A model generated the notes under the pieces. That model searched no databases and was not told the origin of the DNA. It saw nothing but the letters and a program-made list of their open reading frames with translations. Shown here piece by piece: positions 1,885 through 46,219 of a stretch of 64,000 nt of DNA (its first letter is position 1; every line of letters starts with the position of its first letter). A program made the position numbers and the translations under genes. Source of the DNA: a virus (Duplodnaviria > Caudoviricetes); IMG/VR virus record IMGVR_UViG_3300013121_000016, positions 1-64,000 of that record. One strand, 5' to 3'.

Positions 1885-1895
1885 GTGAGGTATTT

Positions 1896-1938: not shown

Positions 1939-1972
1939 TCTCCCCGGGGGCCGTTTCAATTACCCCCGTAAT

Positions 1973-2692: not shown

Positions 2693-2709
2693 ATAATTAA
2701 GAATTTGAT

Positions 2710-5228: not shown

Positions 5229-5240
5229 AATGGTATGAAT

Positions 5241-5276
5241 AAAAAAGGGGCGCTAAGCTTTTGGCCCCGCCCCTTT
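5241..5276 (-). terminator. Intrinsic terminator-like hairpin
   Basis: AAAGGGGCG..CGCCCCTTT stem with T6 on the minus strand, after the putative SSB. Confidence 0.55.
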
Positions 5277-5293
5277 AGGTGAGTGAGTGGATT

Positions 5294-5848
5294 TTACGCA
5301 AGTAATTTGGAGTCAGCTGAGAGACTGTCTTTGTTAGCCAGTTCCTCAATCTTTTCTTGTTCTTTCTTGGTAAACCTTAAAGAGGTAGGGAACCCCTTCA
5401 CGTATTTCTCCATGTAATTGTAATCCGGAACCTTTCCATACTTGTCATTCTTAGGGTCAACACTGACCTTAAGGCAGATCTCTTCGTCAATGAATTGAGA
5501 AAGAGTGTCGGCTGCAAGTTCCATGAAAGTCTGGTAATCAGGGGCTTCGAGGTTGCCTGCTTGATCTCCTAAAAAGGATCGCAGGGCAACTACTACAATG
5601 CGCACGTTCTTAGCGATTGAGCGCTCTAGTGCGTCAGATGGTGTTTCCCCTTCTTGGAGGAAAGCTGCTTGCGGTTCAAATAAGCGCTTATGTATAAAGC
5701 GTCCGTCCTTAGAGGCGAACTTTAAGTCTCACCAGCCTTGGTCATATACCAGGCCTTTGAATAAAACATCTCCTTCGTGTATTCCCACCGGAATCTTTGA
5801 GCCGCCCGTCGGTAGCTCATTCTCAAAATAAAGCTTAGCTTGTATCAT
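5294..5848 (-). CDS. Putative single-stranded DNA-binding protein, 184 aa with 1 TGA=Trp
   Basis: MIQAKLYF..IPVGIHEGDV..DQGW[W]DLKF joined across TGA 5729; lies between ERF and primase. Function is inferred from context. Confidence 0.55.
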
Positions 5849-5852
5849 CTTC

Positions 5853-6281
5853 TTAATACTTCTTATATGTGTTAGTGTATGTCTGTGCCGAAACGGTTTT
5901 ACCTGATGCTTTATTGCCATCGTCATCGTCCTCGATGTTTAATCCGAGAATTGCACCTAGCGAATAGCGGCGCATGTAGGTGATGGCTGACCCGACTGCT
6001 TGCGGATCGTTCTTTACAGGCTGCGTACTTACAGTGTCCTCTAACCACTCACCTGATTTATGCATCAAGATTGTGGTGAGGCCATTGTCACCTGAAGGAA
6101 ACTGGCAAAACGATAACCCGTTATTTGATAAGGGCTCTCTAATGGCCCTGATGATTGCACTCAAGCTTACGTAAGACGACTTAAAGAAAGGGTTCTTCGC
6201 GTCTTTTACGATAGCATCCATCTCGCCTTGGAATTTTGCGAGTGCTGTAGCGAGATTCGTAATACTCTCTGATTTCTGCAT
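5853..6281 (-). CDS. ERF-family ssDNA annealing protein
   Basis: KDAKNPFFKSSY, PQAVGSAITYMRRYSL..LG...DDDGN. Confidence 0.92.
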   Translation of the reverse strand: MQKSESITNLATALAKFQGEMDAIVKDAKNPFFKSSYVSLSAIIRAIREPLSNNGLSFCQFPSGDNGLTTILMHKSGEWLEDTVSTQPVKNDPQAVGSAITYMRRYSLGAILGLNIEDDDDGNKASGKTVSAQTYTNTYKKY

Positions 6282-7267
6282 TATAGCGTAACCTCTGTTA
6301 ATTTCCCAAACTTAAAGTCTTCAACAAGAGGTATGATTTTAGTCTCACCAAATCTTTCTTTGATTAAGTGCCAATAAACCATACTCTTGGTCTCGTCCTG
6401 TGGCCACTTCACAGGTAAACCGTTTGGAAAGCCTTCTAATTGTGGCCCGTATCTGCGCCCAATGCCACTTAAGGTGGCTGGGCGGTGTGTGATAATTACG
6501 TAATCGCTGCAAGTAAACACAGCTGATGATGCAAAGATATCATTTCTTGTTGGAAAATGCAAATTATAATTCTGCACTCTCTCACTTTTTTCGATTTCCC
6601 TGTTCATCTGTGTGAGGACAATAAAAATAACCTTCAGTCCTTCTGCAGCAAACTGCTTCTTAAGGTCCACGAACGCGCGCATCAGCTCATCTACAATGGC
6701 TTTCTCGTCGTCAGTCTGTTTACCCTTTGTAAGCAGCACGTGGTCGATTGTGACCACTAAGCCTGTGTCCTTATCCAAATGTTCTTTGGTGAATCCGCGA
6801 ATAGTTGAAACAATCTGTTCAACTGTCCCCGCATTATCAACATAGTACACTGGATCATCCTTCATCCTTCCGAGAAGCTCGCGAGCTTTCAAGAAGGTGT
6901 TTTCGTCTATAGGACTCTCTGCCGAGTACAACTCCTTAATGGACTTGTCAAGCTTAGCAGAAAGGCCTTTCGTTAGTTGATCTTCAATTAGCATCTCAAA
7001 CTCGAAGGACAAAATGAAGAACTTCTGATCCCTGTTAAGATCAATGAAATCCCTTTTAAGTTCTTCAAGAAGAGTTGATTTACCACTGCCGCTCATGCCG
7101 GCAAATGATAGAATTCTATTTCAGTCTATCCCATTCATTAGCTGCTTGTTCAGCTTAGCCTTAGAAGTGAGAAGAGACTTGACCTTGCCAGTACGTCGAT
7201 CCTCAAGAGCCTTCCAAGTTAGATTAGCTCCATGGGATATATGTCGATAATTAAGCGATTGAGTCAT
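6281..7267 (-). CDS. DnaB-like replicative helicase, 328 aa with 1 TGA=Trp
   Basis: GID[W]NRILSFAGMSGSGKS (TGA 7121, just before Walker A), FEFEM, IDH, LTQMNR. Confidence 0.9.
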
Positions 7268-7784
7268 AACTTGGTTTATCTGGAGCTTTCACATCTTTGT
7301 AAACGCCATCGGCTAAGAAGCTCGCTGGTCCCTTCATCCATCTGAAGGGAGAACCCGTAGTACTTGCCTCCATAGCAAACCGAGATATATAATTCTCGGT
7401 AGCGCTAAACAACTCATCCTCGTCAAATTGAAGGATGACCCGTTGATAGAGATTGTAGACTTTGTTCTTAGCAATCCTAAAGGAACGACCATCCGTGGTA
7501 GGTGGCCAGAGTACCCACCATTTCTCGAATTTGTCCGAGAATTTAACTAGCGGTTTATCCTCTGATTCGAGAAGGTCTGTAAGGAACGCGAGTCCTTTGT
7601 CTGTGAGCTCATGCGTGTCCCAGTAACCGAGCAGAACTAACCTTGAAAACTCTGGTGCAGTTAACTCGATCTCCAGCTCATGTTTCTCGGCCAGATCCCA
7701 CATGAAAAAAATCATATTCAGGGAAACTTGCGCGTTCCGAGCTTTCTGGACCATAGATTTTATACTGTCGGATGTGATCTTCAT
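7251..7784 (-). CDS. Putative phage replication initiator / helicase-loader-like protein
   Basis: FEKWWVLWP...WMKGPASFL resembles the FxxFWxxYP...patFL C-terminal motif of phage replication proteins; adjacent to DnaB. Confidence 0.55.
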   Translation of the reverse strand: MKITSDSIKSMVQKARNAQVSLNMIFFMWDLAEKHELEIELTAPEFSRLVLLGYWDTHELTDKGLAFLTDLLESEDKPLVKFSDKFEKWWVLWPPTTDGRSFRIAKNKVYNLYQRVILQFDEDELFSATENYISRFAMEASTTGSPFRWMKGPASFLADGVYKDVKAPDKPSYDSIA

Positions 7785-9127
7785 TTTTAAAAAACAAACT
7801 TCTTAGTTCTGGGTTTCCAATGATTACTGTCAGTGCATCCATAATGCAATCACTAATAGTATCAAATGGTCCCGCAATGTGATAATTTTTAGGTGAGCGG
7901 TTGTATCGGTGTTTGAGGATGTATTGCAGGCCAACCACATGTCCCCCGCTTTTCATCTCAAAGATAAGGAGGAAAAGTCGCCAGCCAAACTTTTTGGCTC
8001 TAAAAACTTTTTTCATTAGTTGGTTAACTTTGCGATATCCACCCGGAAGACTCTAAAGATCTCTGAAATGACATCCAAGGGCGACTGGTCGCTGAGTGGA
8101 TAGATTTCACTGCGTATGCGGTTCTTGTCCCACCTGTTCTCGATCTTGTTCCAGAACTCCAGGCGGTATAGTGCCCATATGCGTGTACCGTCATGTGAAT
8201 ACCCAACTTCGACCGTGAGCATTTGTTTCCCTTCATTTGACACAATGGGATGCTCCAGTGTTAAAATCTTAGGCATGATAGTTCGCCGCTAGAATGAATG
8301 CGTGCGAAAGCACGTTCATTCCGAGCGGGTTTTTGTACGATGGCTCAATAAGATTCCCGTCTTTCGTTTTGATGGAGCAGGAATACTGTCCTGATGCATC
8401 TAAGTATACGGTAATCTTTGCGCCATCGGCTAGTGAAATCTTACGCTGAACGCGTCTGTTGTTTATGTCTGCCATATTAGTCTAGGTCCCAGCCTGTTAA
8501 GATTGGTTTTCTTTCTTCAAATTGTAATTCTGCAACCAAAGCAGCCGCTGCTGCAACAGCATCGCTTATGTCAGCGACTTCTTCAGTAGTGCCGACCTTG
8601 CAAACTTCTTGGAGATTACGCGCCGTTACTCTGATTTTTGATTTGTCGTAGATTACAGCGTAGTAAGTTTCTTTGAAGACATGCTTCCAAATGGTAGCAT
8701 AAAAACGATCGTCCAGCGTGGCCGTGTTAATGTACTCTGCCATAAAGTATCTCTGAAACTCTCATAAATCCCATTGACACCGCATCACATATGCCTAGTA
8801 TAGCGGCAGTTCTCAAACTAAAACCGCTTGAAGGATCGTGTACGGTGCAAGAGTATTTGCTTAGCATGGTGGATCCACTGCTAAGTTCAAGGTGGACAAA
8901 CATTACTACGTTTGTCCCGGTATCTACTTTGATTGGGAAGTCAGCTTCCATAGCTCGATAAATGCTGCGCAGACACAGTCTGCAATGTTATCGTAAATAT
9001 ACGAATTGCTATTCACTGCTGGCAAATATATAACCCAATAGAATTGTGGAAATCCATGTGAATTATTTATAAGCTCATAGATATGAATTTCATTGATGCC
9101 AACTTTGATTTTAGCCAAGGGTCCCAT
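7678..9127 (-). CDS. Array of six small hypothetical proteins (7678-8016, 8016-8276, 8269-8475, 8477-8743, 8727-8951, 8924-9127)
   Basis: Abutting or overlapping starts and stops; similar beta-rich plus C-terminal helix pattern. Confidence 0.6.
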
Positions 9128-10233
9128 TACATAGTCAGGGAGGTAAAGTCGCGTCCATATTTGAGCACAACTTGCTGAACAATGTCCACGGGGTTACCGT
9201 GAATTATCATGTCTTTGGGGTGCGCATATTGCTCTTTGATTATCACCCGGACGCCCGCCTTATGTGGGTAGTACCCAATGAACGTAGTACCGAGTATTGA
9301 TACGTGGACTGGTCCACCTTCAATGCCTCCATGGCAACGTGCGCACATCTTGAGTTTGTCCCTCGATATAAAGGATTCGATCAAAAGTTTAGGTAGAAGT
9401 GTAGCATCCACCAGAAATAAGTCGGTGCAGTATTCACATTCGTGCTCATAGTACCTAGTGGTGACCGGATCAATGTCTAGGATTAGTCTTCCCCGATTTG
9501 GAGGTTCTCCGTCGTTTGCTCCGGAACCTACCAAATAAGAATAGGCGCAAGCTGGGCACATATGCTTATTAATAGAGTCGTCTTTGTATGACCCTCTGTA
9601 TTCAGCTTCGTGCGGATCGATAAAGTATATGTCACCGCAGTTAGGCACTGCGCATATGGCGATTAAGTTTGGGCCATGTGGTTGAGGTGTATCCATCTTT
9701 AGATTCAGCCCATACTCAGCATGTGCAAAAGGTACGCATTGAGACGTACAAATTCTGACATTCCCACCACTCAATTGACTAGAGTCACCTCGAACTGGGG
9801 CGCTTACTAAAAGATAATTGTCAGTCCTTTCCTTACACGCGTAACAGCAACGGCTGTTCGGGAAAGCGTAAGGATCAAGATGAATGTAATGCTGGTCGAC
9901 TGAGAGATCGAACTTACCAAACTTAGCAAGTAACTCTAGCCGGGAACGAGCGGAATCTTCAATCTGATCGAAGAGTCCTCCACGAACAGGTGGACCCAAG
10001 AGCTCAGATTCCATAAGCACTACTTCCTCAGAGCAAGGCCAGCACATATATGCTGTTGTGAAATGTGCTCCTTCTGTAGTCCCTCGTGTAGGGAAGAACA
10101 GCACAGGGAAAGACTGATTGCGCTCTTGGCAAAAAGGACATAGGTGATCTTTGTCTCCACCCGCCTTATATCTGTAGAACTCAGGGGGAAGCGCCTGGCC
10201 CTTCGAGTTAATGTATCTCTCCAGGTAATTCAT
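9127..10233 (-). CDS. Multi-CxxC zinc-finger protein (368 aa)
   Basis: Repeated CxxC pairs (CPFC, CWPC, CYAC, CPAC, CEYC, CARC). Confidence 0.7.
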   Translation of the reverse strand: MNYLERYINSKGQALPPEFYRYKAGGDKDHLCPFCQERNQSFPVLFFPTRGTTEGAHFTTAYMCWPCSEEVVLMESELLGPPVRGGLFDQIEDSARSRLELLAKFGKFDLSVDQHYIHLDPYAFPNSRCCYACKERTDNYLLVSAPVRGDSSQLSGGNVRICTSQCVPFAHAEYGLNLKMDTPQPHGPNLIAICAVPNCGDIYFIDPHEAEYRGSYKDDSINKHMCPACAYSYLVGSGANDGEPPNRGRLILDIDPVTTRYYEHECEYCTDLFLVDATLLPKLLIESFISRDKLKMCARCHGGIEGGPVHVSILGTTFIGYYPHKAGVRVIIKEQYAHPKDMIIHGNPVDIVQQVVLKYGRDFTSLTM

Positions 10234-11368
10234 GGATCTGAGTTATTCATTTAACGTTCTTAAGAGAAGATGTTTTCTTAAGAATCCATTTCTCTTCTTG
10301 CGTGTCTGGCACGTAAAGATTGATAAAAACAGCTTTCTTACCTTCTTGTGGTCGGAGTATTCTCCCTAGCCTTTGAATGTTTTCAAGGTCAGTAGAGGCT
10401 CCTGCGGCACAGATAGCGCTGTCAACATCAACAACATTTAGCCCCTCATTAAGGGCGTCCACTGTGATAAGTGGGTGGTTATTCTTTTTAAATGATTCCA
10501 ATACCACCTGCCTTTCTTTGTCAGAAAGCTTAGAGTGATAGACTGGGCAGTCCATTGTTTTTGCAAGCCCTTCGGCAAAGGATATGCTTTTGGTGAATAT
10601 GATTCACTTTCTTTTTGGAAACTGCTTCACCAACTTTACAATGGCTTCCATTTTGGATGGACAAGAGTACAGGGTGTTTTTACGTAAGGACATCCCTGCC
10701 CAATATTTTTTAGAGAGTTCAACCACTGGCGTCTTATCAGACTGCTTTGCCATATAGTTAGCCAGGTCAAAGATAGATTTAAACTTATCCTTGTAATGAG
10801 CCGACCATAGTCTAGCTAGTCCTATCCGTGAAGAGGAAAACATTTGATCGAACACTCGATATTTCGCTGCTGTGTGGTGATCCATCTTAACCGCCAAGTT
10901 ATAGACTAGATATGGCGCTAATGTGCCATCTATCTCATCTAAATGCTTTGCGTAGATCACTGGGGAAACTTGCTCCATTAAAGCCAGCTTACCTTCGTTA
11001 GGAAGAGTGGCAGTCAAACAAATGAGATGTTTGTACTTAATGGATGAAAATAATTTGATGAATGCCGGTGAGAAGGCCCTGTGGGCCTCGTCCACGATCA
11101 ATAAGTCACATTCTGTCTCAGTCTTGTAGGCAGTGTTAATGACCATGACCCTAACGTCTGCGTCAGGATACGTTTCCTCGTATTCCTTTTTCCACTGTTC
11201 TACTAAAGGCACTCGGGAAGTGACGACAACACAGGAGCCTCCCAGACTCTTGTGCGCCATCACTCCCAAGCGCGTTTTTCCGGTCCCTGTTGGCAGTACT
11301 ACGGTACCATTTCAGTTCCGCTGCGCCAACATAGCTATTGCTTCTTCTTGTATTTCTGTTCTAGTCAT
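10208..11368 (-). CDS. SF2 DExH helicase, 386 aa with 3 TGA=Trp
   Basis: LPTGTGKT, IVDEAH, LTAT, LNEGLNV, QRLGRILR; TGA at 11312, 10604 and 10247; TAA at 10208. Confidence 0.9.
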
Positions 11369-12239
11369 GATTGTATGGTGAGCAATCGCTGCAAATTATT
11401 TGCGAAGAATCACACTTGTACTCTTTGCACGAAGGACATTTAAATGTGGCTGCTTGACAGACCTCACATGTTTGCCCTTCGTACATGACTTCCTCGTCGT
11501 AACATCTTTCGCACTTGAATGGTGTCATTGAGTAGGAGCGAGTATAATAGTCATCTTCACTACATTCCATGCACCAACCTTCACCGTCTGTAAGTTGTGC
11601 AGATTTACTATCGCAGTAGGTGCAGATGCCTTGTCGTTTCTTGTCGTGACAAGTTACACAAAGCAGATCATTGCGATCCATAGGTACGAATTTATCGCTG
11701 CAGCCCTTACAGTTTGGGAGACAATCTTGGCATTGCCACTGATCTTCAGAGTGCGCAGTGAAAATTGTCTCACAGTCAGCACATTCTCTCTGTCTTAGCA
11801 TATGGTAATGACAGTAATCCTTATCGGCAGGAATCCATTCGTCGCATGCTTTACATCGGTGAATTGATAGAGCAAAACTATCACCTCTTGCTGCCGCTAT
11901 GTCAACTTGACCATTTACATAGCAAATGCAACAGATGTTCGCTTTATTAAGCACCAGGTAGCGGGAACACGAAGAACACTCACGTGCTCTCAGGGAGTCC
12001 TTAGGATGCTCCTCCCAACCACGTAAAGGACCGTATGCGCAAGTCGGGCAGTGCATGTCGTCGTCAACGACCTCAACCACCGTGTGACACTCGACACATA
12101 TCAAAGGTAAGTCTTGTCTGCAAGATTCGCAAGCATTTACCCAACCAATGTTTACAGTCTTTGGTGCACAATCGGCACAAACACCTTTAGCATCTAGCCA
12201 ATGCATTTCAAGACAGTAAGAGCAGGCGCCTTGTGTCAT
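11361..12239 (-). CDS. Cys-rich zinc-ribbon repeat protein (frame open upstream to 12476)
   Basis: About 20 CxxC units; see frameshift finding. Confidence 0.7.
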   Translation of the reverse strand: MTQGACSYCLEMHWLDAKGVCADCAPKTVNIGWVNACESCRQDLPLICVECHTVVEVVDDDMHCPTCAYGPLRGWEEHPKDSLRARECSSCSRYLVLNKANICCICYVNGQVDIAAARGDSFALSIHRCKACDEWIPADKDYCHYHMLRQRECADCETIFTAHSEDQWQCQDCLPNCKGCSDKFVPMDRNDLLCVTCHDKKRQGICTYCDSKSAQLTDGEGWCMECSEDDYYTRSYSMTPFKCERCYDEEVMYEGQTCEVCQAATFKCPSCKEYKCDSSQIICSDCSPYNHD

Positions 12240-12430
12240 TGCTCTAAACGGAAGCGTAAAGCGCGTGTATATTCGCTTTAGTTCTGTTGCATGGACTGTA
12301 TCTAGACAACTTCCGCACTCGTTGTAGTCTCCTGACCCGTAAGGACATGCAGGTCTTCCACAAACGAAATCCTTGGGTGGAGTCTCTAGATAAAAGGGGC
12401 AGTCTGCCGTTAAACAAACTGCCTCCCCCT

Positions 12431-13498
12431 CTAAGGGTTTATAGTCATTGCCAAGCCCCCCTCCTTGGGCGACTTCTTAAATTGAGCAAGGATCTCGGCA
12501 ATGAGATCTTTCTTCTCTTTATCCGTACCGTTGAAACCTTCTACCTTGAGGTAGAGACGTCCAATGGCCTCGGAGACGGCAAGCTGAGTCTTCGCATTTT
12601 GGCTCGCGAGAAACTTGTGGGCAGAGGTCTTTTTACTTTCTACCTTATCGTCCGCAAGTCCGCAGAATGTGAGCAGCTTACCTACATTCTCTGCGAACGG
12701 TTTTGCTTTATCCTTGTCCTTTCCTTTGTCTTTATCCTTATCCTTGTCCTTATCCTTGTCTTTGTCTTTATCCTTATCAGCAGCAGGATCCTTTTCAAGG
12801 TCCGAATTGAGTACACCTTTAGTGCTCTCACGTCTTGAGCGCGCTACCTTCAGCGTTTCCCAAAGTACTAAGAGTAAGTGACAAACGGTGATAGCGAAGG
12901 AAGCAATTAAAACGCCAGAGGAATCAGACAATACATTGTAAGTCAAGGGTTTTCCCAAGGAATACAGCTCTGCGAAGTATTCACGCGCGCTCATCAAGTT
13001 GAACGCTACAAATATTCGGTGGAACATTAACGTCAACTGTGTCATTTCGCCTAAGTTGTTGGCAATGACAATCAAGTTAACGACCGGGGTCCCTAGAGAG
13101 AGGATAGTGGTAACAAACACTAGGCCTAAGGAGATCAGCGCATCAACGACGGATTTCTCCTTCATGATGGCTGAGTATAGGTTGTTTAATTCTTTCGTCC
13201 ACACCAAGCCAGCAGCAACGGATAGGGCGGCCATACAAGTGTGAGTGAGCATCCGTGCGAGAGGAGATATGTCGTTCGATGCAAAGCCTGCGGCTAGAAC
13301 ACCCTCGGCAAAGTTTGCCCAGAATAAAAAGATGAAGAATAGAGACATTGGGTACCGAATTGTTAACTCGGCGACTACCAAACCGATCTCTTTGCCTTTG
13401 TTCTTCGGGTCACGTGCCACCTTCACAATCAGGAGGATGACAGCGACCACAAAAAGTATCGCTAAGAGAATCACTAATAGCTGGTTCGAACTGACCAT
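12431..13498 (-). CDS. Polytopic membrane protein with (DK)n linker
   Basis: About 5-6 hydrophobic segments, then a DK repeat and a helical C-terminus. Confidence 0.75.
   Translation of the reverse strand: MVSSNQLLVILLAILFVVAVILLIVKVARDPKNKGKEIGLVVAELTIRYPMSLFFIFLFWANFAEGVLAAGFASNDISPLARMLTHTCMAALSVAAGLVWTKELNNLYSAIMKEKSVVDALISLGLVFVTTILSLGTPVVNLIVIANNLGEMTQLTLMFHRIFVAFNLMSAREYFAELYSLGKPLTYNVLSDSSGVLIASFAITVCHLLLVLWETLKVARSRRESTKGVLNSDLEKDPAADKDKDKDKDKDKDKDKDKGKDKDKAKPFAENVGKLLTFCGLADDKVESKKTSAHKFLASQNAKTQLAVSEAIGRLYLKVEGFNGTDKEKKDLIAEILAQFKKSPKEGGLAMTINP
12707..12778 (-). repeat. Hexamer tandem repeat encoding (DK)9-GK-(DK)2
   Basis: GAY-AAR units visible directly. Confidence 0.9.
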
Positions 13499-15312
13499 TA
13501 TTTAATCCATTTTCGTGTAATTTTAGCTTCGGCAGGAATTGGTAGACTTTTGCAGAAGACGTTCGCAGCTTTCTCCATAGAAGAGCTTAGAATATCTTTT
13601 ACTTCTAACGCATCCTGCTCTTTGCACATTACTACCCACTCGTCATGAACGAGCAGTATGAGCTCAAAGATAGGCCGTTTTTTTTGAGCCTCGCGCATGT
13701 AGACACCTGCTAGCTTCGAAATTGAAGCTCCGGTACCTTGTGGACGGTAGTTCTGAGAAATCCGTTGATACTCAGCCTTAAGGGTCTTGTAAAGAGACGC
13801 ATACTTAGGATGTAAATCCTTGTGTTTTTCTACGAAACGATATAGATCCCATTTAGGTAAATACGACTTTCTGCCTAGAACCATGTCGATTAACACGTAC
13901 CCTTGAGCGCGTGTTTTATTTCCGACCTCGTCGAAGTACTCTTTCAACGTCGGAAACGTCTTAAAGTATTTCGCCACCATATCCTTAGCATTAGCGCTAG
14001 GGACTCCGTATCGACTTGTGACGGTTGATGCCCCGCCGCCAAAAGCAATAGCAAAGCCAACGTTTTTGGCAAGTCTACGCTCTGGCGAATCCTTCGTAAG
14101 GTTCGGGTTGTTAAAGGCTTTCTTAGCGGTTTCAAGGTGATAGTCAAGACCATCACGGAACATCTGCCGCAACACTTCCTCACCTGAAATATCCGCAAGC
14201 AAACGCGCTTCTTGTTGCGAGTAGTCGGCAACGACGAAGGTTCACCCTTTCGGGGCTTCAAATGCCGACCGGTACTCTTCTCCATGTGGGATGTTTTGCA
14301 TGTTAGGATCGGAGGACGATGTGCGACCAGTATCCTTTATCTGCCAAAAGGATGAGTGGATCCGTCCAGTCCGTGGATTAACGTGCTGTAAGAAACTTTC
14401 ACCGTAAGTACCGTCACGTTTGACTGCCTCACGATAGTCGATGTACGTCTTTACTAGAGGATCTGACATCTTAGATGCCAAAGCCACTTTGGAGACGCTT
14501 TCTTTGATTGTGCCGGTTTTCCGGTCGATGAATTCGACGTTTATTCCTTTCGTCTTAAAGACCTTAGATACTTGCTGCCAAGATAACCAATTGATATCAG
14601 CCACAAGCTTTAGCTCCTTAAGGAGCTCCTCTGCTGCTGCTTTCGATTGCTCGGCGACTTTTAGCCACGCATCCTTATTGATGGGGATACCATTGATTGA
14701 CATATCTGTAAGGACTTTAATCGTTTCGAACTCTAACCTAGCTAGATCGTGAAGGTCATTCTCGCGAAGAAGTCTTTGCAGATGGACGTAAAGACCGTAA
14801 GCATATACGACGTCTAGAGCACCATAAGTAAGATGCACCTCACTAAATTCCTCGTCGTCCTCAATTAAAGCAAAGGAGTCCCTTACCTTCTTGGTGACGT
14901 AAGGAATAAAAAGGTTACCTTGGTTAGTGTACGCGAAAGGATCGTAATACCTCTGCGCCGTCTTCTCTAGAGTGAAATGGCCGCGTTTAGTTGGCAGCCC
15001 GCACTCAAGGATTTGAGCCGCGATCATCGTATCGAACAGGTTCTCTAGAGTGATTCCAAAGTCCTGCTTGATTACTCGATAGTCGTAGGATAAGTTGTGC
15101 CCGATAACCAACTTGTTTTGGTCAGCAATCATCTTGACAAGCTCGTAAGCTATATCGTAATGACTGCGCACGTCCACAATTCATTGGGTCTCGTTGTTTC
15201 CTAACTGAAGCATGATCACCTTATGGTCCTTTGTTTCAGTGTCCAGCGCCAGACAGGTCTGTCGGCGCAGCCAGGCCTTAGCCTTAATTAAGTTTTTCTC
15301 GTTTACTATCAT
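13498..15312 (-). CDS. polA: Family A DNA polymerase with 3'-5' exonuclease, 604 aa with 2 TGA=Trp
   Basis: LALDTET, GHNLSYD, TGRTSSSDPNMQNIP, APKG[W]TFVVADYSQQEARLLA, RRLAKNVGFAIAFG, VHDE; TGA at 15181 and 14242. Confidence 0.95.
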
Positions 15313-15632
15313 TAGAATACCTCTTTGCCGTTTCATCTCAGAAACGAGTCTTTCTCGACCTCAGATGCTAACTTGATTGGTTTGGTATGGGTTAGCTTTG
15401 ATAGGCCAGTATAGGCCAGATGCCTTATCCGGCGTACAAAGATACGATTGTCTATGCGCACTTTCCAAATTTGAGGCGTATAAACTTTCTGCTGAGCTTC
15501 TTTATCGGCCTCGTCCAAAATGAAGGGGAGCCCTTCGGAGATAAACTCCAGTAGCTCCCCCTCTTGAAACTCGCCGGTTTGGTGCTCTCAGTCAGTATAG
15601 ATCCTGACCTTAGCTCCTTTACGTTTACGCAT
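15312..15632 (-). CDS. Hypothetical protein, 106 aa with 2 TGA=Trp
   Basis: MRKRKGAKVRIYTD[W]...FLR[W]NGKEVF*; read-through gives a TAATG overlap with polA. Confidence 0.7.
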
Positions 15633-16254
15633 TTTCTCCGACGTGGATGTGGTTCCCCGTCGCGTTTTCATTAAAGAACACGTATTTGGCTGTCTGTGGA
15701 TCACTCAGGTAACGCTTTACCTTACTTGATCCAGGCTTACCTTCAATATAGAAATAAAGATTGTAAGCTGACAGCCAAACTTGGCCATCTTCTGAGACAA
15801 GCCAGTCGATAAGGTCTTTTGAGAATTCCAAATCAACTGCTTTGCCGTGAAAGTGGTCGCTTTTCTGATTGTAGTGGCGTCGTAGCGAAGAAACCTTCAC
15901 TTGCGGACCCCGATAATCCTCTAAAGCGATTTTGAATGATTCGGCGACCGAGGTATCGACAGGTGTGTAGACGATAAATCCGAAGAAAGTACCGTTCTTA
16001 CACACGTTGCTGCTTCACTTTTTCTTCTTGAAGTCTCTCCAAGGGTGCATAGTTTGCAGTGAGTCGATACGTCTCGTCTGCTCGCGCAGCAGGGTGTTAA
16101 GGCTGTCAAGTTGTTCGAGTACTCTGCGCTGATCGGCTTCAATTCCTTGAAGTTTTGCAGCGTACCAGTTGATCGAATGGGTTGTCAATTGACTTCCCAA
16201 AAAACCGACTGTAATTAACCCGAACGCTATAACAACCTTCTTCCATAAATCCAT
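15625..16254 (-). CDS. Membrane-anchored peptidase M15-like endolysin, 209 aa with 1 TGA=Trp
   Basis: Track ORFs 16015-16254 and 15625-16005 are in frame across TGA 16015; SSLRR..SDHFHGKAVD..NHIHV Zn-peptidase motifs. Confidence 0.75.
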
Positions 16255-37774: not shown

Positions 37775-37916
37775 AAGTAAGGAATTTAATTTTGTTTGCA
37801 ATAGTCCTACCCCTATTGCTAGGCTATCAAATAACCCGCTACACGTTTGCAGCGGCATTTGAAACTATGTTTTCAAGATTAAGTACCAATGATAAAAAAA
37901 CCACTGGTACGAGCCT

Positions 37917-38050
37917 ACCCCCATTTGTTCCGACAGTTACGATAGGGGGGTATTTTGTTGGGGGGCACCATCTTTAACACACATACATCCCGGGCGTCAT
38001 CTTTAATACTCGCGTATCCGGGGGGGGGGGGCAGATAAGACCAGGGGGGT
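37917..38050. repeat. G-tract cluster at the transcription divergence point
   Basis: Several G5-G7 runs and one run of about 13 G (38020-38032). Confidence 0.8.
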
Positions 38051-38085: not shown

Positions 38086-38117
38086 TTTGCATATCACTCA
38101 TTAAGTTCGTATCTTTG
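38086..38117 (+). promoter_or_regulatory. Bacteroidota sigma-A-type promoter (near-leaderless ORF 38122)
   Basis: TTTG-N20-TATCTTTG, perfect consensus. Confidence 0.8.
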
Positions 38118-38515: not shown

Positions 38516-38548
38516 TTTGGTGAAAACACAAAAGTTTTTATATCTTTG
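38516..38548 (+). promoter_or_regulatory. Bacteroidota sigma-A-type promoter
   Basis: TTTG-N21-TATCTTTG. Confidence 0.8.
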
Positions 38549-38549
38549 T

Positions 38550-38890
38550 ACTTTAGTCCAGGAGACTCTACAGGTTTCCTTATCAGCCCCGAGAAGCCTA
38601 AAGCGAGTTAGGGGTTCAGAAGTCGGATTAGTAGTTCCAAATAGGAACGAGGTTTTCTCCGATAGGACACAAATGGTTATGCTATAAAGGATAGGTGAGA
38701 GTTGGTTCACTGTAGTGTTAAAGAGGACCCTTTATTTCTTTAACAGCCTTCTCGAGGTTACATGCACTGCCTATAACGAAATGTATAACTTAAGATTCTA
38801 CAAGAGGTGGTAGCCAGACCGCTAGGGGACTCCTATGTTAGTTTCCTACCCACCACGCCCTTCAAAGGGCGCCGCTTGCAGCGGTTGGAA
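38550..38890 (+). ncRNA. Candidate structured leader/ncRNA
   Basis: About 340 nt without a credible ORF, with consecutive hairpins. Confidence 0.4.
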
Positions 38891-39691: not shown

Positions 39692-39839
39692 AACTCTTAC
39701 GGAGCTCTTCACTGCCACTAAGCCCGCCTCCTCGACTGAGGCAATTTCTCCACTTAATGAGAAGGTAGCGACCGCTCTAGATCATCTCCTCAAACCGTTC
39801 CTTCCTCAAGAAAACGAAATCACTGATGACACTATCTAA
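39558..39839 (+). CDS. Gln-rich hypothetical protein
   Basis: Operon-packed ORF. Confidence 0.5.
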   Translation: MQKSQKGPAKASSVSQENLQQLIQSQMIQQQMQHQNHQLHLDTLKTLTELFTATKPASSTEAISPLNEKVATALDHLLKPFLPQENEITDDTI

Positions 39840-40215
39840 TATTACTCTTACTGGAGACAGGGTACTCATCGCACTAGATGAGCATCCTACTCACACTGTT
39901 ACTAAAGGGAATATAGTTGTGCCGCGTTTTGAGCAAGGAGTCACAGAAGGAGGTAAGCCTCGATCTGATTTAGATTCGAGAAAACACCTCTCAGTAGGGA
40001 CAGTGGTCGCTATTTCGCCCTTAGCGTCCAAGCGAATGTCTGAGGAAGAGACTCCCCTCCGCCCTGGAGACAGGGTTTACATATCGGCTACGGCTAATAA
40101 TATCTCATACCAATTTATATCTGATCGTTCGCGCTTAGTCGTGGACTTTGACGGCCTGATCGCCGTGCCTCATAATTATATTGAGGCAATTGTAAATACA
40201 CCAACCAATGGCTAA
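39826..40215 (+). CDS. groES: Co-chaperonin GroES-like
   Basis: LTGDRVLI, TKGNIVVP, GTVVAI, LRPGDRV. Confidence 0.75.
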   Translation: MTLSNITLTGDRVLIALDEHPTHTVTKGNIVVPRFEQGVTEGGKPRSDLDSRKHLSVGTVVAISPLASKRMSEEETPLRPGDRVYISATANNISYQFISDRSRLVVDFDGLIAVPHNYIEAIVNTPTNG

Positions 40216-40522
40216 TAAAGCTCTCAGTGCTGCACAACTTCAAAAGCAAGTTGCAGACCTTCAGGCAGCTCTTGCGTCTTCAGAGAAATTGGCTGCCGAT
40301 CGCGGCCGTCTTCTCGAATACGTTGCTAATCTTTTACTTGAGATTCAAAACAAGTTCTCTAACTCCCCTGTTCTTACAAATCTGCCCAAGAAAGTTAACT
40401 TTTGGTGGCTCCTTACGAACTGGCGTGCAGTCTTAGAGTTCATCGAGTTTGTAGTTCTCAAGATTAAAGAGTTCATCAAGAATGTAAAAGTTCAGCCTAA
40501 TCCAGATGCTGCTGCTCAATAA
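40208..40522 (+). CDS. Coiled-coil hypothetical protein
   Basis: Heptad N-terminus, amphipathic C-terminus. Confidence 0.6.
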   Translation: MANKALSAAQLQKQVADLQAALASSEKLAADRGRLLEYVANLLLEIQNKFSNSPVLTNLPKKVNFWWLLTNWRAVLEFIEFVVLKIKEFIKNVKVQPNPDAAAQ

Positions 40523-41009
40523 TTTTGATCCGTTCGAAGATTTCTGGGCCACAAACCCGCAGCTAAGAATCCTCTTTAAGGAGGAGTACGATGCGAAAGT
40601 TCCATCTTCTCAGATGTGGGCTGTGGCTCTCTTCGTCCATCCATCTTCTAAGCTTTTCAATGAATCGCCGGAGAACCGCAAAAAACTTATTCTAAGTGAT
40701 TATCTTAATGATCCTTCTTTTGATTTTGATTCGCTTTCTCCAACAATTGATAAGTTTAAAAGACTAGTGCTCACGAAGGCGGAGCTTCTTCTCTCTAATT
40801 GGGAGAAAAGAATGTATGATCGCGAAGCCTTCCTAGACTCGGTTCCTTACTCGCCAGACACTTTCGACATGATCGAAAAGATGGTTAAGGAAACTCCTAA
40901 ACTCTGGCAAAACCTCTTTCAAATTCAGACTGCTCTGTCAAAAGAGCAAGATACTAAGGTTGAAGGAGATATTGAGGAGTCACTTTCTGAGAAAGGACTT
41001 CTCGACTAA
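40506..41009 (+). CDS. Hypothetical helical protein (possible terminase small subunit)
   Basis: Upstream of the packaging genes; C-terminal VEGDIEESLSEKG. Function is inference. Confidence 0.5.
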   Translation: MLLLNNFDPFEDFWATNPQLRILFKEEYDAKVPSSQMWAVALFVHPSSKLFNESPENRKKLILSDYLNDPSFDFDSLSPTIDKFKRLVLTKAELLLSNWEKRMYDREAFLDSVPYSPDTFDMIEKMVKETPKLWQNLFQIQTALSKEQDTKVEGDIEESLSEKGLLD

Positions 41010-41254
41010 GGGCCTGATCCTGGACATCTTTGGTTAGTTGTAATCTTTAAATGACGAATCGCTTTCTTTTGCTGCCTCAATCCCCTCGTGGGCCGTGACT
41101 TACATCCAGGCAGCTCCGCTCACCTCTACAGCGGATGACCAAGTAGAGGCACCCGAACTCCTCGAAGTTTTAGTATAGTCATTACCCTTTACACCTTACT
41201 AGCTTAATCGCCCTCTAATCAAACACGCGGGTTCGACTCCCGCCAGGTCCACCA
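41010..41254 (+). ncRNA. ssrA: Minimal tmRNA (245 nt)
   Basis: Acceptor GGGCCTG/CAGGTCC with G3-U, ACCA end, T-arm GCGGG-TTCGACT-CCCGC, helix TTTGGTTAG/CTAATCAAA, H-type pseudoknot 41116-41149, tag-like frames. Confidence 0.85.
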
Positions 41255-41334
41255 AAAGCTTGCCAGCTATAGGGGGAGATTGATTAACGATCGCTCCCCC
41301 AAAGAATAACCGTTCACTTTTAAATTTTTTGCTT

Positions 41335-41436
41335 ATGTCCTACATTCAGGGGGTTTTCAACCACTGTGCACCGACGTGTCTGCTCAACGATCATCGCCGC
41401 GATGTCCCCCAGCAGCCACCCGGTAGTCGGGTCTAA
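41335..41436 (+). CDS. Possible 33-aa small ORF between tmRNA and tRNA
   Basis: MSYIQGVFNHCAPTCLLNDHRRDVPQQPPGSRV*, AT-rich start context. Confidence 0.35.
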   Translation: MSYIQGVFNHCAPTCLLNDHRRDVPQQPPGSRV

Positions 41437-41523
41437 CCTTTAATCCGCTTCAAGGCTTTGGCAGATCAAAAAGTTGATCGCTTTACGGGGTAAGGGCGCT
41501 GTAATAGTGCCCTGCCCCACTAT

Positions 41524-41597
41524 AGGGTGGTAGTTCAATAGAGTTAGAATGACGGTCTTCAAAACCGTAGATGAGGGTTCGAGTCCCTACTGCCCTG
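41524..41597 (+). tRNA. Opal suppressor tRNA-Trp(UCA)
   Basis: Cloverleaf; anticodon arm ACGGT-CTTCAAA-ACCGT (TCA at 41559-41561); A1-U72 and G73 as in tRNA-Trp; short variable loop; CCA not encoded. Confidence 0.92.
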
Positions 41598-41614
41598 CTA
41601 ATTTAAACTTTGCT

Positions 41615-41896
41615 ATGGAAAACACTTGGTACAGATTTCCAATTACTGTCGTTTCTCAACAAGACTACGAGCTTTATGGTAACCAACCACCGGCTGACGC
41701 CTCTATGCGGTCGTACGTAGACTTTAGACTTGACTCAATCGTAGGCCTCAGAGCTTACTTTGAAGATGACGGCACGGTCACTGGAACACAAATTTACACG
41801 ACAGCTGGAACTGATTTTGCTGTCGATCTCAAACCATCCGAGGTACGCAAGATTCTCGGATACACACCTATAAATAAAGAAGAACATGGAAACTAA
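41615..41896 (+). CDS. Hypothetical protein
   Basis: Start moved to ATG 41615, downstream of the tRNA. Confidence 0.65.
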   Translation: MENTWYRFPITVVSQQDYELYGNQPPADASMRSYVDFRLDSIVGLRAYFEDDGTVTGTQIYTTAGTDFAVDLKPSEVRKILGYTPINKEEHGN

Positions 41897-42131
41897 TTAT
41901 ATTGAAACAGATGGAACCGTCTCAACATCTACAATGCTGAGTCATGCCATCCCTATGGCGGATTGTCCTTGTAAGAAAGAGTATGTAGAGCGCAAACAGG
42001 AACATCGCGTATCTCTATACGCCATATCAGATATGGACCCAATAAAGATTACGCAAGACTTTTCTAAAATTATTGAGTACATACAGACACTCGGATTCAA
42101 GACGACAGGAGTCGAATTAACTCGTTGGTAA
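41886..42131 (+). CDS. Hypothetical protein
   Basis: Operon-packed ORF. Confidence 0.55.
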   Translation: METNYIETDGTVSTSTMLSHAIPMADCPCKKEYVERKQEHRVSLYAISDMDPIKITQDFSKIIEYIQTLGFKTTGVELTRW

Positions 42132-42373
42132 TGGAAATCACTATTTATTTTGAAGCTATTGATGAGGACACTCTTGGTAATGGGCGCACGATGGTAGCCA
42201 TCGACGTTCCCTTGGCAAGGAACGTCGAGGACTTCGACAAAGTACTTGACTCTCAATTCTCAAACTTCAAGATGCGCCTCCTTACCGAGCTCTATAAAAA
42301 GTACCCCCACTACTGGCATAAGAATTCACCGATCGAACACGATAAATTAAAATCACTAGAAACGAATGGCTAG
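42131..42373 (+). CDS. Hypothetical protein
   Basis: TAATG overlap. Confidence 0.55.
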   Translation: MEITIYFEAIDEDTLGNGRTMVAIDVPLARNVEDFDKVLDSQFSNFKMRLLTELYKKYPHYWHKNSPIEHDKLKSLETNG

Positions 42374-43979
42374 AAAAGTCATATCAGGACAAGAACTACA
42401 GGACGGATTATCAAGAGGAGTCGACATCCTTGCCGACGCTGTAGGTTCAACCCTGGGCCCACTGGGCCGAAACGCTATTATTGAGACTCCTTACGGAGCG
42501 ACTACCGTGACTAAGGATGGAGTGACAGTGGCTGAGCTTATTGATCTTGAAGATCCTATCGAGAACCTTGCTGCTCAGATCCTTAAGCAAGCTGCACAGC
42601 GAACAGCCAAGGTTGCCGGAGACGGCACGACCTCTGCTACAATTATTGCGCAAACTCTCTATCAAGAAGCCCGCAAGCTTATTACGTCTGGAGTAGCTCC
42701 GATTCACATCAAACAGAGCTTCGAGCGGTTCCTAACCCAAGTTATTCCGCTCATCAGAGATAAGTCTTTAGAGGTCTCTACCAAAGAGGATATCTATCAG
42801 ATTGCTCTCATCTCAGCTAATAATGATGCGCATATTGCCAGTCTTATTGCTCAGGCAATGGAATATGTTGGAAAGGATGGGACTATTACATTAGAGGAGT
42901 CAAAGACTGGGACCACTGAAGTTACACTTGTTGATGGTTACGCTTTCGAGCGTCCTTACGCGTCTCCCTATTTTGTTACTAATCCTGCGAAAGGCGAAGT
43001 AGAATTGGATAACCCACTCATTTTCATTACAGATAAGAAGCTTCGCTACACGCAAGAGATTATTCCTATCCTGGAACTTGCTCACGCCAATTCTCGTCCA
43101 CTGCTGATTATTGCTGATGATATTGAAGGCCAAGTCTTACAGACCTTAGCAATCAACAAGATCTCCGGGACTATTAAAGTATCAGCCTGCCGTGCACCTT
43201 CGTATGGTGAGAATCGTCTTCAAGTCTTACAGGATATTGCAGCGCACACTTCTGCTACTGTTATCTCAGAGTCTTCGGGCCAGCGCATTGAAGACACTAC
43301 TTTTGAACAACTAGGCGAAGCTGCTAAAGTTCGTTCAACTCGTAACGAAACTATTATTATTGATGGAGCTAAAGATGAAGCACGTACTGAAGAGCGCGCA
43401 GAGCAAATCAGACTTGCTCTTAAAGACTACACCGGTGACTCTTATTACCACAAGCAATTACAAACACGCCTCTCGAAACTCACAGCCAAAGTGGCTATCC
43501 TACATGTTGGAGCAGCAACGGAAACTGAACTCAAAGAGAAGAAGGCGCGAGTTGATGATGCACTCCGAGCTACGACGTGCGCTGTCCAAAAAGGATATGT
43601 TGTAGGTGGTGGTACTCTTCTTGCTAAACTTTCAAAACAATTTGCAAATGAAAACGACATCATATCGACAGTTTTCGCCAGAGCTCTTTCGGCGCCGCTT
43701 CGCAGAATTGCTCAAAACGCTGGCACATCCCCGGATCTCGTCCTTGCGAAAGTACTTGAGGAAAAGAATGAGTTTTATGGCTACAACGCGTTAACTAACG
43801 AGTATACTGACCTAATTGTTGCCGGGATCATTGATCCTACCCTGGTCGTTGAACAAGCACTACTTAACGCAGTCTCCGCTGCAAACATGCTAATTCTATC
43901 TGCTACTGGTATCTACAACATAGACCGCACGCCGCCCTACTCTCCCGGTAATTTAGGAGACTTTCAGTCAGAAGAATAA
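42366..43979 (+). CDS. groEL: Chaperonin GroEL
   Basis: TLGPLGRN, VTKDGVTVA, AGDGTTSAT, GAATETELKEKK.RVDDAL.AT, GIIDP; no GGM tail. Confidence 0.96.
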   Translation: MARKVISGQELQDGLSRGVDILADAVGSTLGPLGRNAIIETPYGATTVTKDGVTVAELIDLEDPIENLAAQILKQAAQRTAKVAGDGTTSATIIAQTLYQEARKLITSGVAPIHIKQSFERFLTQVIPLIRDKSLEVSTKEDIYQIALISANNDAHIASLIAQAMEYVGKDGTITLEESKTGTTEVTLVDGYAFERPYASPYFVTNPAKGEVELDNPLIFITDKKLRYTQEIIPILELAHANSRPLLIIADDIEGQVLQTLAINKISGTIKVSACRAPSYGENRLQVLQDIAAHTSATVISESSGQRIEDTTFEQLGEAAKVRSTRNETIIIDGAKDEARTEERAEQIRLALKDYTGDSYYHKQLQTRLSKLTAKVAILHVGAATETELKEKKARVDDALRATTCAVQKGYVVGGGTLLAKLSKQFANENDIISTVFARALSAPLRRIAQNAGTSPDLVLAKVLEEKNEFYGYNALTNEYTDLIVAGIIDPTLVVEQALLNAVSAANMLILSATGIYNIDRTPPYSPGNLGDFQSEE

Positions 43980-46219
43980 TGATTTTACCTTCTAATCCTA
44001 AAGATTTCTTACTTAAAGAAATTCCAGATTTCCATCCTCTTTCTGCATCTTGGGCTGCTTTCTGAAGAGAGCAGTATCGATACTGCAAGGAGGGCTATTG
44101 GGTGGGTGGCACTTGAATGCCGCCTGCCCTTTACTATTATGCGAACTTTGGAACTATTAAGAAGAACATAAAGTTTTCCTCAGCCAAAGTTTACGATCGA
44201 CCAGACCTTCGAGATCTGGAATGGGACCTCTTCTATCACTACAGTGAAGCAAGAGGTTTTTCTGGTTTTAAGTATGATGACGTTTATTCGTCACACAGGA
44301 TACTACTTGATCCTGACGTAACTGACGATTTTTTACTTCTTAATCTTCCTGAGACACTTAATTCTAAGGGAGAACGTAAGACATATGTGCCTGCGCGAGA
44401 TTACATGCGCAAGCTACATCCCACCGCTCTTGGCCCACCGCTCTTTGACAACGAGAAGAAGAACCTTATGCTTCTCGGCTCTCGTGACTTAGGTAAGTCG
44501 TTTGCTGTCGGTGTAGGGATGGTTGGTCACATGTTCCTCTTTCCGCCCGCTGCCAATCACACCAAACGTATTCCTACTGAGGTTCTAGTTGGAGCATCTA
44601 TTTCTGACAAGTCTCGAGATCTTCTAAAGAAGACTAAAGACTCTTTTGACTTCCTTCCGGGTAAGCGCACTATCTCTGGTCGCACTTACCCTTCGCCATT
44701 TTATAAGCAGTACTCTGGCTCTTGGTCAGTAAACTCGGATATAAAGGCTGAATATAAGAAGAAAGTGGATGGTCGTTGGGATACTGTTGGTAGTCGTGCT
44801 GTTATTAAACACAGGTCCTTCAACGAGAATCCGTTTGCTGCTCAAGGTACCCGCCCCGACCTTATGGTCATTGAAGAAGCAGGTATGGCTCCCGAGCTTA
44901 AAGACATTTATGTTCACTCAGTGGATGCTCTTCGTCGCGGTCTTACCAAGACTGGTACTCTCCTTGTACTTGGTACTGGTGGTGACATGGCTAAAGGTAC
45001 ACTTCCAGCCTCTGAAATGTTTTACGAGCCTGAGAAGTACGACTTCCTGGCTTTTGAAGACATTTATGAGCAGCGCGGCAAGATATGTTACTTCATACCA
45101 GCCTACTATTCGCTTGATGAATTCCGTAACGCTAATGGATATGTTGATGTAGAGAAGGCGACTAAGAAACTTCTCAATGTACGTAAGCTCAAAGGAGGCG
45201 ACTCGGGTGCGTCTACGGCACTCGATATGGAAATGCAGTATCGTCCTTTGGTGCCGTCAGAGATGTTCCTATCTAAGACAGCAAACATCTTTCCTTTTGC
45301 GGAATTGCGTCGCCGCCTCTCGGAAATACAAGCTACCTCTACTTACGAGAAACTAGAAAAAAAGGTAGATCTGTTCTTCGATCCGTCGGCCAAGTCCTAC
45401 AACGGAGTATCTTACGAGATTAACGATAGACTTAATCCAATTACTACGTTTCCTTATGATGGAGACGATAGAGAAGGAGCTGTTGTTATTTACGAGTTCC
45501 CACAGCTTATCGACGATAAAGTACCGCAAGACGCCTACATTATTGGTTGTGACCCGTATAAAGATGATACACAGGAAGGCCAATCGCTCGCCGCAATTTA
45601 CGTCGTAAAAACCTCGAAGTACTTCTCCACTATCGGTCACGATGAGATAGTTGCTTCATATATAGGACGCCCATACATGGGTAAAGTGATTGTGAATGAG
45701 ATACTTCACAAGCTGTCACTATTTTACGGCAACGCCAAGATTTACTTCGAGAACTCAGTGGGTAATGTCAAAGATTACTTTGAGCGCGTTACGCGCCTAG
45801 ACTTACTTGCAACACAGCCCACGACTCTTTTCAACAAGAAGGCTTCCTACAACACTTCTCCGACACTTATTTACGGTTATCCCATGCCCAATCAACGAGT
45901 TAAGTGGGAGGCGCTCCAGTACTTGCGTACGTGGCTTCTTACCGACCGAGGTGATGGTAAGCGCAATTTAGATCTCATATCTGACCCAGCGCTTCTTCAA
46001 GAGCTAATCTCCTTTAACCTTGACGGCAACTTCGATAGGGTGATGGGCTTGGTGGGTTGCGTTATTGGACTGGAGGAAACCTTCAACCACACAAAACGAT
46101 CACAGGAGCGAGAAGTATACTCTTCAGCTCTTGATTTAGAGATAATATCAAAGCTTACAAATAACAAAGCTTTATTCTATGAAAACTTTCCCAAAGCAAA
46201 GACTTCCATATTCGCATAA
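43979..46219 (+). CDS. Terminase large subunit, 746 aa with 2 TGA=Trp
   Basis: PDFHPLS..WAAF[W]REQ...EGYWVGGT[W]MPPALYYY (TGA 44063, 44114); GSRDLGKS, IEEAG, GTGG, GCDPY, NFDRVM. Confidence 0.93.

Follow-up and report, generated by a model that had tools for sequence, protein, structure and literature searches.

A minimal long-tag tmRNA and a putative UGA suppressor tRNA between the chaperonin genes of a dual-coded crAss-like phage

Suppressor tRNAs are the usual explanation for stop-codon recoding in phages; a few cases also involve release factors or synthetases. Jade phages carry a standard-code module made up of a TGA suppressor tRNA, a tryptophanyl-tRNA synthetase (TrpRS) and release factor 1 (RF1); transfer-messenger RNA (tmRNA) and ribosome rescue are not mentioned in that report (Borges et al., bioRxiv 10.1101/2021.08.26.457843). 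In crAss-like phages, block-wise dual codes and phage-encoded suppressor tRNAs are established (Yutin et al. 2021, PMC7886860; MgCod, 10.1101/2022.06.29.495998). Huge phages are known to encode tmRNAs (Al-Shayeb et al. 2020, PMC7162821). The searchable literature on phage recoding does not address the fate of ribosomes that read through host stop codons. The subject of this report is a 64,000-nucleotide (nt) stretch of viral DNA (positions 1 to 64,000 of IMG/VR record IMGVR_UViG_3300013121_000016), here called the window. In it, a tmRNA gene and a gene for a tRNA with anticodon UCA, tRNA(UCA), lie between the genes for a GroES-like co-chaperonin and a GroEL-type chaperonin.

The window covers the first 64 kb of a virus record that is complete and 103,169 bp long, with direct terminal repeats and a GC content of 44.6%. 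Its large terminase (TerL) is 33% identical, over 96% of the length, to that of Cellulophaga phage phi14:2 and matches those of gut crAss-like phages more weakly; the phage is thus crAss-like. Contig names of relatives indicate freshwater and groundwater samples. Like the Jade module, the locus clusters a TGA suppressor tRNA with translation-related genes readable in the standard code, directly upstream of TGA-containing genes. Unlike Jade phages, this phage has neither TrpRS nor RF1 in its genome but does have a tmRNA, and the neighbouring protein genes are recoded in its relatives. It shares with the dual-code crAss-like phages a standard-code block, blocks in which TGA encodes tryptophan (Trp), and a suppressor tRNA; in contrast to those phages, it is environmental, has both replication and late genes recoded, and uses TGA sparsely. 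A literature search found no paper linking tmRNA to TGA recoding or describing a long-tag tmRNA.

The locus probably consists of a conserved backbone of GroES-like protein, the protein p167, GroEL and TerL, with a slot that holds the suppressor tRNA and a minimal rescue tmRNA; on this reading the chaperonins are independent of the code and there is no pre-switch module. A long-tag tmRNA limited to TGA-recoded members of one phage group is a testable handle on the cost of read-through. Neither the chaperonins, nor the small open reading frames (ORFs), nor the absence of TGA from the block should be taken for components of a designed switch.

The tmRNA and the suppressor tRNA

The two RNA genes and the tag frame are as follows.

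41010-41254, plus strand: minimal one-piece tmRNA with an encoded CCA end (relaxed ARAGORN, homologs, covariation)
41053-41178, plus strand: tmRNA tag reading frame of 41 codons, from GAC to a TAG stop (frame and TAAAT-GAC context common to relatives)
41524-41597, plus strand: tRNA-Trp-type opal suppressor, anticodon UCA, G73, CCA not encoded (ARAGORN, Rfam)

The tmRNA gene is 245 nt long, and together the RNA genes span 589 nt, in keeping with the original prediction that both sit within 600 nt between the chaperonin genes. Default ARAGORN misses the tmRNA. So does Rfam at its gathering threshold; the tmRNA model (RF00023) matches the T-arm only, with 18.5 bits against a threshold of 47. Relaxed ARAGORN (-ps) calls the gene exactly at 41010-41254. 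The 5' end GGGCCTG pairs with CAGGTCC, which is followed by ACCA, so that the acceptor stem has G3:U70 and A73. The T-arm (41227-41243) has a TTCGA-type loop and the anticodon arm is absent. Helix 2 is formed by 8 bp between 41030-41037 and 41215-41222, and equivalents are readable in the ends of the relatives' genes. The minimum free energy fold recovers the acceptor stem and the T-arm.

Relatives were fetched as 36 loci through GroEL and 56 through TerL (one already among the GroEL set), with a further 26 loci from metagenomes and 69 through TerL alignment; about 150 related stretches were compared. Fetched loci are designated by L-numbers, L097 being the genome of L038 and L098 the genome of L075. 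Default ARAGORN finds tmRNA homologs at the same place, following the p167 homolog, in L041, L043, L044, L046, L091, L048 and L073. Its relaxed setting adds L039, L065 and L060, and a paired-end scan requiring G3:U70 adds L085 and L087; nhmmer ties the window tmRNA to L001, L002, L075 and L076. Seven distinct sequences show compensatory changes at acceptor positions 4-7 (such as CCTG/CAGG, GGCG/CGCC, GATG/CATC, CGTG/CACG and TCCG/CGGA), while G3:U70 and A73 are invariant. The T-stems also co-vary. The sequence at 41010-41254 is a genuine tmRNA and one of a phage lineage.

It is scarcely credible that this sequence is a relic without present function, left behind by capture of a host ssrA copy or by an attachment site. 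The low Rfam score, the miss by default ARAGORN and a length too short for the usual pseudoknots are what a relic might show. Many phages carry 3' ssrA fragments as phage attachment sites (attP), and only the last 33 nt of the window tmRNA are matched by blastn among deposited phages (the tmRNA of L085 has no match there). However, acceptor stem, T-stem and helix 2 are compensatory, the identity pair for alanyl-tRNA synthetase (AlaRS) does not vary, and in each lineage where it can be read the tag frame has stayed open and closes with TAA or TAG. An origin as an attP remnant was rejected, since there is no integrase and both tRNA-like halves are present and co-vary.

The tag predicted for the window is DESLSFAASIPSWAVTYIQAAPLTSTADDQVEAPELLEVLV, which has 41 residues, is acidic and ends in LEVLV. 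Its first eight residues seem to resemble an ordinary short SsrA tag with a lost stop codon. The resume codon is predicted from homology with the frames that default ARAGORN reports in relatives. A tag frame is readable in the window, L075, L041, L048, L039, L060, L087 and L073, and is unclear in L085. These tags are acidic and 30-45 amino acids long; in most of them Asp is the first residue and follows a TAAAT-like context, and the last three residues are V-Y-A, V-L-V or V-H-A. In all readable lineages the frame stops at TAA or TAG, never at TGA. When L048 is compared with L039, conservation of the tmRNA is highest in the tag region (92% identical, with flanks at about 70%). The codon differences there are one synonymous and five non-synonymous; because the substitutions are not mainly synonymous, frame conservation is the sole support for translation of the tag. 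From helix 2 to the resume codon there are about 15 nt, and the tag frame takes up 126 of the 245 nt, which leaves little room for pseudoknots, and little or none for pseudoknot 1.

The window tmRNA is thus like bacterial SsrA (RF00023) in its Ala-type tRNA-like domain without an anticodon arm, its helix 2 and its internal, stop-closed tag frame. It differs from SsrA in its length, in having only about 15 nt between helix 2 and the resume codon, in its acidic, non-LAA tag, in the absence of a phage SmpB and in falling far below the Rfam threshold. Domains of release factors, TrpRS, SmpB (in a six-frame domain search) and integrase were found nowhere in the 103,169-bp genome; the original prediction had seen no release factor or TrpRS in the window, and this extends to the entire genome. 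Because the phage has no SmpB domain, host SmpB would have to serve. The tmRNA would presumably be charged with alanine by host AlaRS, given G3:U70 and A73, and would act with host SmpB and EF-Tu. It would free ribosomes that reach message ends after UGA read-through and append the 41-residue acidic tag, in place of the usual short tag ending in LAA. Without an LAA end, tagged products may have a different fate.

In the closest relatives (L075:1988-2757, also L001, L002 and L076) the tmRNA homolog is split near the T-arm by an ORF with CxxC motifs. This ORF is bordered by a 16-nt repeat of the 3' acceptor strand, whose second copy ends in CCA. The ORF possibly encodes an HNH-like endonuclease, and the insertion may be an intron or homing element.

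The tRNA(UCA) is called by both ARAGORN and Rfam (41524-41597/8, 55.7 bits, 74 nt) and is the genome's sole tRNA. It carries A1-U72 and G73, its anticodon stem-loop is like that of tRNA-Trp save for U34, and it is 78.5% identical to an annotated phage tRNA-Trp. It forms a cloverleaf with a short variable loop, so it is not a tRNA-Sec. The features mark it as Trp-like, and the alignment of in-frame TGAs to W, or to F or Y, in homologs is indirect evidence that it decodes UGA as Trp. It would presumably be charged by host TrpRS and matured by host enzymes, and would compete with release factor 2 (RF2) at UGA. In this way about 44 in-frame TGAs of the replication and late blocks would be read as Trp, while the early block keeps TGA as a stop.

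In several relatives tRNA(UCA) is longer. It measures 94-100 nt in L041 (7503-7596), L039 (5513-5610), L073 (3977-4070), L082 (3368-3467), L060 (7447-7540) and L085 (about 7150-7260). The long 'variable arm' is a hairpin of 4-6 bp with the loop TCCAA, which looks like a second anticodon loop with the Trp anticodon CCA. Its stems vary compensatorily between lineages and the TCCAA loop is kept; the window tRNA lacks this hairpin. One possibility is a decoy anticodon arm for the recruitment of TrpRS, another is an alternative fold. A literature search returned no paper on a tRNA(UCA) with a TCCAA-loop variable arm. The L075 genome, which is the closest complete relative, has no recognisable tRNA(UCA) but a tRNA-Ser(UGA); it also contains an odd 86-nt tRNA-like gene with an unusual anticodon region (L098:1501-1586). 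In the L038 genome there is a 132-nt tRNA match of 46.6 bits (L097:1501-1632) in which a 76-nt insertion replaces the anticodon arm; possibly this is an intron-bearing tRNA.

Genetic code and distribution of the RNAs among relatives

Alignments to relatives indicate that TGA is read as Trp in most of the genome. In-frame TGAs were compared with the aligned residues in homologs, and Pfam domains were followed across TGAs. The TGAs of TerL, the portal protein and g52942 align to W, with some F or Y in homologs: opposite TerL codon 29, 24 relatives have W and 22 have TGA; opposite portal codon 395, 28 have W and 22 have Y; and opposite g52942 codon 32, 12 have W and 8 have F. Pfam domains continue uninterrupted across TGAs in three minus-strand genes, those for DNA polymerase A (PolA, 13498-15468), a DnaB-like helicase (6281-7309) and an SF2 helicase (10208-11368). 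Together with the Trp-like tRNA(UCA), the alignment of in-frame TGAs to W and other aromatic residues supports the original prediction that the tRNA unlocks recoded genes. Beyond the window, an ORF of 5,366 codons (G000:79332-95432) is open only if its two TGAs are sense codons; it is possibly a crAss-type virion RNA polymerase.

The code differs between blocks of the genome. The early block (about 16.3-37.8 kb, minus strand) uses TGA as the stop in 18 of its 35 genes, several of which have ATGA overlaps. The replication block (238-16254, minus strand) has 22 TGA and 69 TGG Trp codons, and the late block (43979-100018, plus strand) has 22 TGA and 145 TGG. With 44 TGA against 214 TGG in the two together, TGA is a minor, sparse Trp codon. 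In these blocks, as in genetic code 4, TGA is found at Trp positions inside conserved domains and is unused as a stop. A standard-code early block thus coexists with two recoded blocks.

Association of the RNAs with recoding was counted over lineages in which the slot between p167 and GroEL is fully covered; there are 14 recoded and 13 close non-recoded lineages. A tmRNA is present in 9 of the 14 recoded lineages (the window, L075, L041, L060, L048, L039, L073, L087 and L085) and in none of the 13 non-recoded ones (Fisher P 0.0006). ARAGORN at both settings and the paired-end scan found no tmRNA in 860 kb from 69 loci of more distant relatives, almost none of which has in-frame stops. Co-occurrence with recoding, which the original prediction offered as a check for the tmRNA and tRNA(UCA), holds for the tmRNA in these counts; the chaperonins are equally present in non-recoded relatives. 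Because it is found only in TGA-recoded relatives, the tmRNA most likely adds rescue capacity under UGA suppression.

A stronger claim is that the long-tag tmRNA is a true code-switch accessory. It would then join suppressor tRNAs and release factor or synthetase genes as a third class of recoding helper, recycling ribosomes that overrun host stops and using a phage-specific acidic tag of 30-45 residues without LAA. This is put forward tentatively, as a serious possibility that is open to considerable doubt.

Several observations weigh against a role for the tmRNA in recoding. On a tree of TerL plus portal, recoding changes at least six times and tmRNA presence five times. Six independent contrasts result, about three in the same direction and none opposite (P about 0.25); a test corrected for relatedness is underpowered here, as six contrasts cannot reach significance. 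L071 and L113, with 11 and 21 late-gene TGAs, have no tmRNA in the slot, and neither does L082, which has the suppressor tRNA. In the L038 genome (99% complete, recoded) a Trp-like tRNA(UCA) lies elsewhere, and a tmRNA 3'-end pattern that recovers the window and L085 matches nowhere. The tmRNA is thus dispensable for recoding. Furthermore, every early gene with a TGA stop reaches a TAA or TAG within about 40 codons beyond it, so the phage's own early genes create no non-stop ribosomes and need no rescue; any benefit from the tmRNA would concern host messages or the general supply of ribosomes.

Some of the same data could be explained by a general-purpose rescue RNA, which serves when host mRNA is degraded or cleaved and is linked to recoding because it shares a slot with the suppressor tRNA, the two being inherited, gained and lost together. 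We regard this as rather unlikely. Phage tmRNAs without a link to recoding are known (Al-Shayeb 2020, PMC7162821), 5 of the 14 recoded lineages have no tmRNA, the corrected association is not significant, and in lineages with both RNAs they occupy the same slot at a distance of 125 to 1,300 nt. On the other hand, this phage group gave no tmRNA match in its roughly 80 non-recoded loci examined. The two RNAs are also separable: L082 and L038 have the tRNA only, and L048, L087 and L075 have a tmRNA and no tRNA(UCA) identified nearby. The tRNA precedes the tmRNA in L073 and L085 and follows it in the window, L041, L039 and L060, which argues against a single inherited block. Since order and spacing vary, tmRNA and tRNA are kept together but not as one fixed block.

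Chaperonins, small ORFs and promoters

The remaining features of the region are as follows.

38086-38117, plus strand: Bacteroidetes-type promoter match 1 (TTTG, 20-nt spacer, TATCTTTG)
38516-38548, plus strand: Bacteroidetes-type promoter match 2 (TTTG, 21-nt spacer, TATCTTTG)
39826-40215, plus strand: GroES-like co-chaperonin, 129 amino acids (Pfam Cpn10, PHROG 3188)
40208-40522, plus strand: p104, no family match in Pfam or PHROG, homologs in both code states
40506-41009, plus strand: p167, conserved all-helical crAss-like protein, adjoining the tmRNA
41335-41436, plus strand: ORF between the RNA genes ('sORF'), open frame with no homolog in any relative
41615-41896, plus strand: orphan ORF, 93 amino acids, no family match and no homolog in relatives
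41886-42131, plus strand: orphan ORF, 81 amino acids, no homolog in relatives
42131-42373, plus strand: small ORF, 80 amino acids, homologs in 22 loci of one subclade, including the non-recoded L037
42366-43979, plus strand: GroEL-type chaperonin, 537 amino acids (Pfam Cpn60_TCP1, 224.7 bits)
43979-46219, plus strand: large terminase TerL, start overlapping the GroEL stop (TAATG)

The original prediction had taken the whole groES-groEL block to be one co-adapted, TGA-free cassette that is expressed before the code switch: the tRNA installs the code, the tmRNA clears ribosomes, GroEL and GroES buffer folding, and a small ORF blocks RF2. The parts it listed (GroES-like gene, tmRNA, tRNA(UCA), GroEL and the open frame at 41335) are all present. 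They are adjacent and stand behind two full matches to a host-type promoter consensus, as had been claimed. It is also true that no listed gene from 38122 through GroEL (43979) contains TGA in frame; TAA or TAG terminates each of them. After the block, the first in-frame TGAs are codons 29 and 46 of TerL (positions 44063 and 44114). There is also the analogous standard-code 'code change module' of the Jade phages (bioRxiv 10.1101/2021.08.26.457843). As an explanation of the block as a whole, the cassette is nevertheless very improbable and is already largely refuted by the comparative data that follow.

The chaperonins are not tied to recoding. GroES-like protein, p167, GroEL, TerL and portal follow in the same order in TerL relatives with or without late-gene TGA, and homologs of p125, GroES, p104 and p167 are each found under either code; the proposed place of GroEL and GroES in a recoding device finds no support, because non-recoded relatives have the same layout. 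They are a feature of the subgroup, probably for the folding of virion proteins, and independent of the code change. Nor is there support for the lack of TGA as a matter of design. Genes of the block are not kept TGA-free among relatives: p167 homologs, upstream of the RNA genes, have one to three in-frame TGAs in ten recoded lineages (L075, L041, L039, L048, L060, L064, L071, L073, L082 and L087), and p166 homologs also carry TGA in recoded relatives. The window block has no TGA among 13 Trp codons, which is within chance expectation (P about 0.16 at the late-block rate, range 0.09-0.16). TGA is the stop of none of the 11 cassette genes, compared with 18 of the 35 early genes (P about 4e-4); the block is simply written in the recoded dialect, which avoids TGA stops.

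The promoters speak against expression before the switch. Matches were sought to the Bacteroidetes consensus TTTG-N20/21-TAnnTTTG, and activity of the matches is presumed from that consensus alone. There are 9 full matches genome-wide, against 2.5 in shuffles, and 5 of them share the octamer TATCTTTG. The octamer also stands upstream of recoded replication genes on the minus strand (6563, 7989 and 15469). As the same promoter type precedes these genes, it can be argued that the block is not expressed before all recoded genes; it is not a purpose-built, TGA-free module expressed ahead of the switch. Host-type promoters would fire on both arms of the genome, and the stretch would be the head of a long plus-strand transcription unit of packaging and virion genes in a dual-coded crAss-like phage. 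A scan for E. coli-type promoters gave nothing above chance.

The small ORFs were the proposed source of an RF2 antagonist. None of them tracks recoding among relatives: those at 41335, 41615 and 41886 are orphans, and those at 40208, 40506 and 42131 have homologs in non-recoded relatives as well. There is no sign that any of them plays this role, though it is conceivable for the orphans. The ORF at 41335-41436 is probably not a gene: it lacks homologs among the relatives, and the spacer around it (41255-41523) has no DNA match there either. Atlas matches to the ORF at 41615 are hypothetical phage clusters only.

Chaperonins have been found in phages before: examples are the co-chaperonin gp31 of T4, the GroEL-like gp146 of Pseudomonas phage EL, and viral GroEL and GroES in marine viromes. 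As in these, the GroES-like and GroEL-like proteins of the window are encoded next to virion morphogenesis genes. They differ in belonging to a crAss-like lineage and in being split by 2.15 kb of variable cargo; a literature search found no paper on chaperonins in crAss-like phages. The GroES-like protein matches Pfam Cpn10 over residues 6-39 only (27.5 bits, cut-off 21.1) and the PHROG 3188 co-chaperonin family over residues 5-106 (E 6.8e-5). With a Cpn60 and a Cpn10 domain the two form a group I chaperonin pair. GroEL was matched in 82 of the 91 loci fetched first, 36 of which had been fetched with a GroEL query. Depending on the lineage, the gap between p167 and GroEL holds a tmRNA, tRNAs, small ORFs or an endonuclease-like ORF.

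Homologs of p167 occur in 43 closer loci and in most distant loci; in the distant relatives p167 lies close upstream of TerL and no GroEL was found between them. An AlphaFold2 (AF2) model (predicted local distance difference test, pLDDT, 84) consists entirely of helices. The best matches to p167 come from gut crAss-like phages and are uncharacterised. The possibility that p167 is a divergent SmpB was rejected on the basis of this all-helical model and the lack of a Pfam, PHROG or PDB sequence match or a PDB structural match.

In the closest relatives the matches to GroEL and TerL span 2,586 and 3,360 nt (L075:5551-8136 and 8132-11491). The same genes in the window are 1,614 and 2,241 nt long, so each carries an insertion of about 1 kb in those relatives, either an intein or an intron.

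The -7 box of promoter match 1 ends 4 nt before the ATG of a 79-codon ORF at 38122. This ORF, which has no homolog in relatives, would be leaderless or would not be the first gene of the transcript. Promoter match 2 is followed by a 360-nt ORF-free leader, in which 94 nt (38586-38679) are 81-86% identical in L002 and L071. Rfam finds nothing there; the segment may be a small RNA or a regulatory element. Where the early block and the plus-strand unit diverge, about 70 nt (37914-37987) with G-runs close by are conserved under both codes (L002, L127, L107, L066 and L041), and this segment is a candidate early promoter or origin element.

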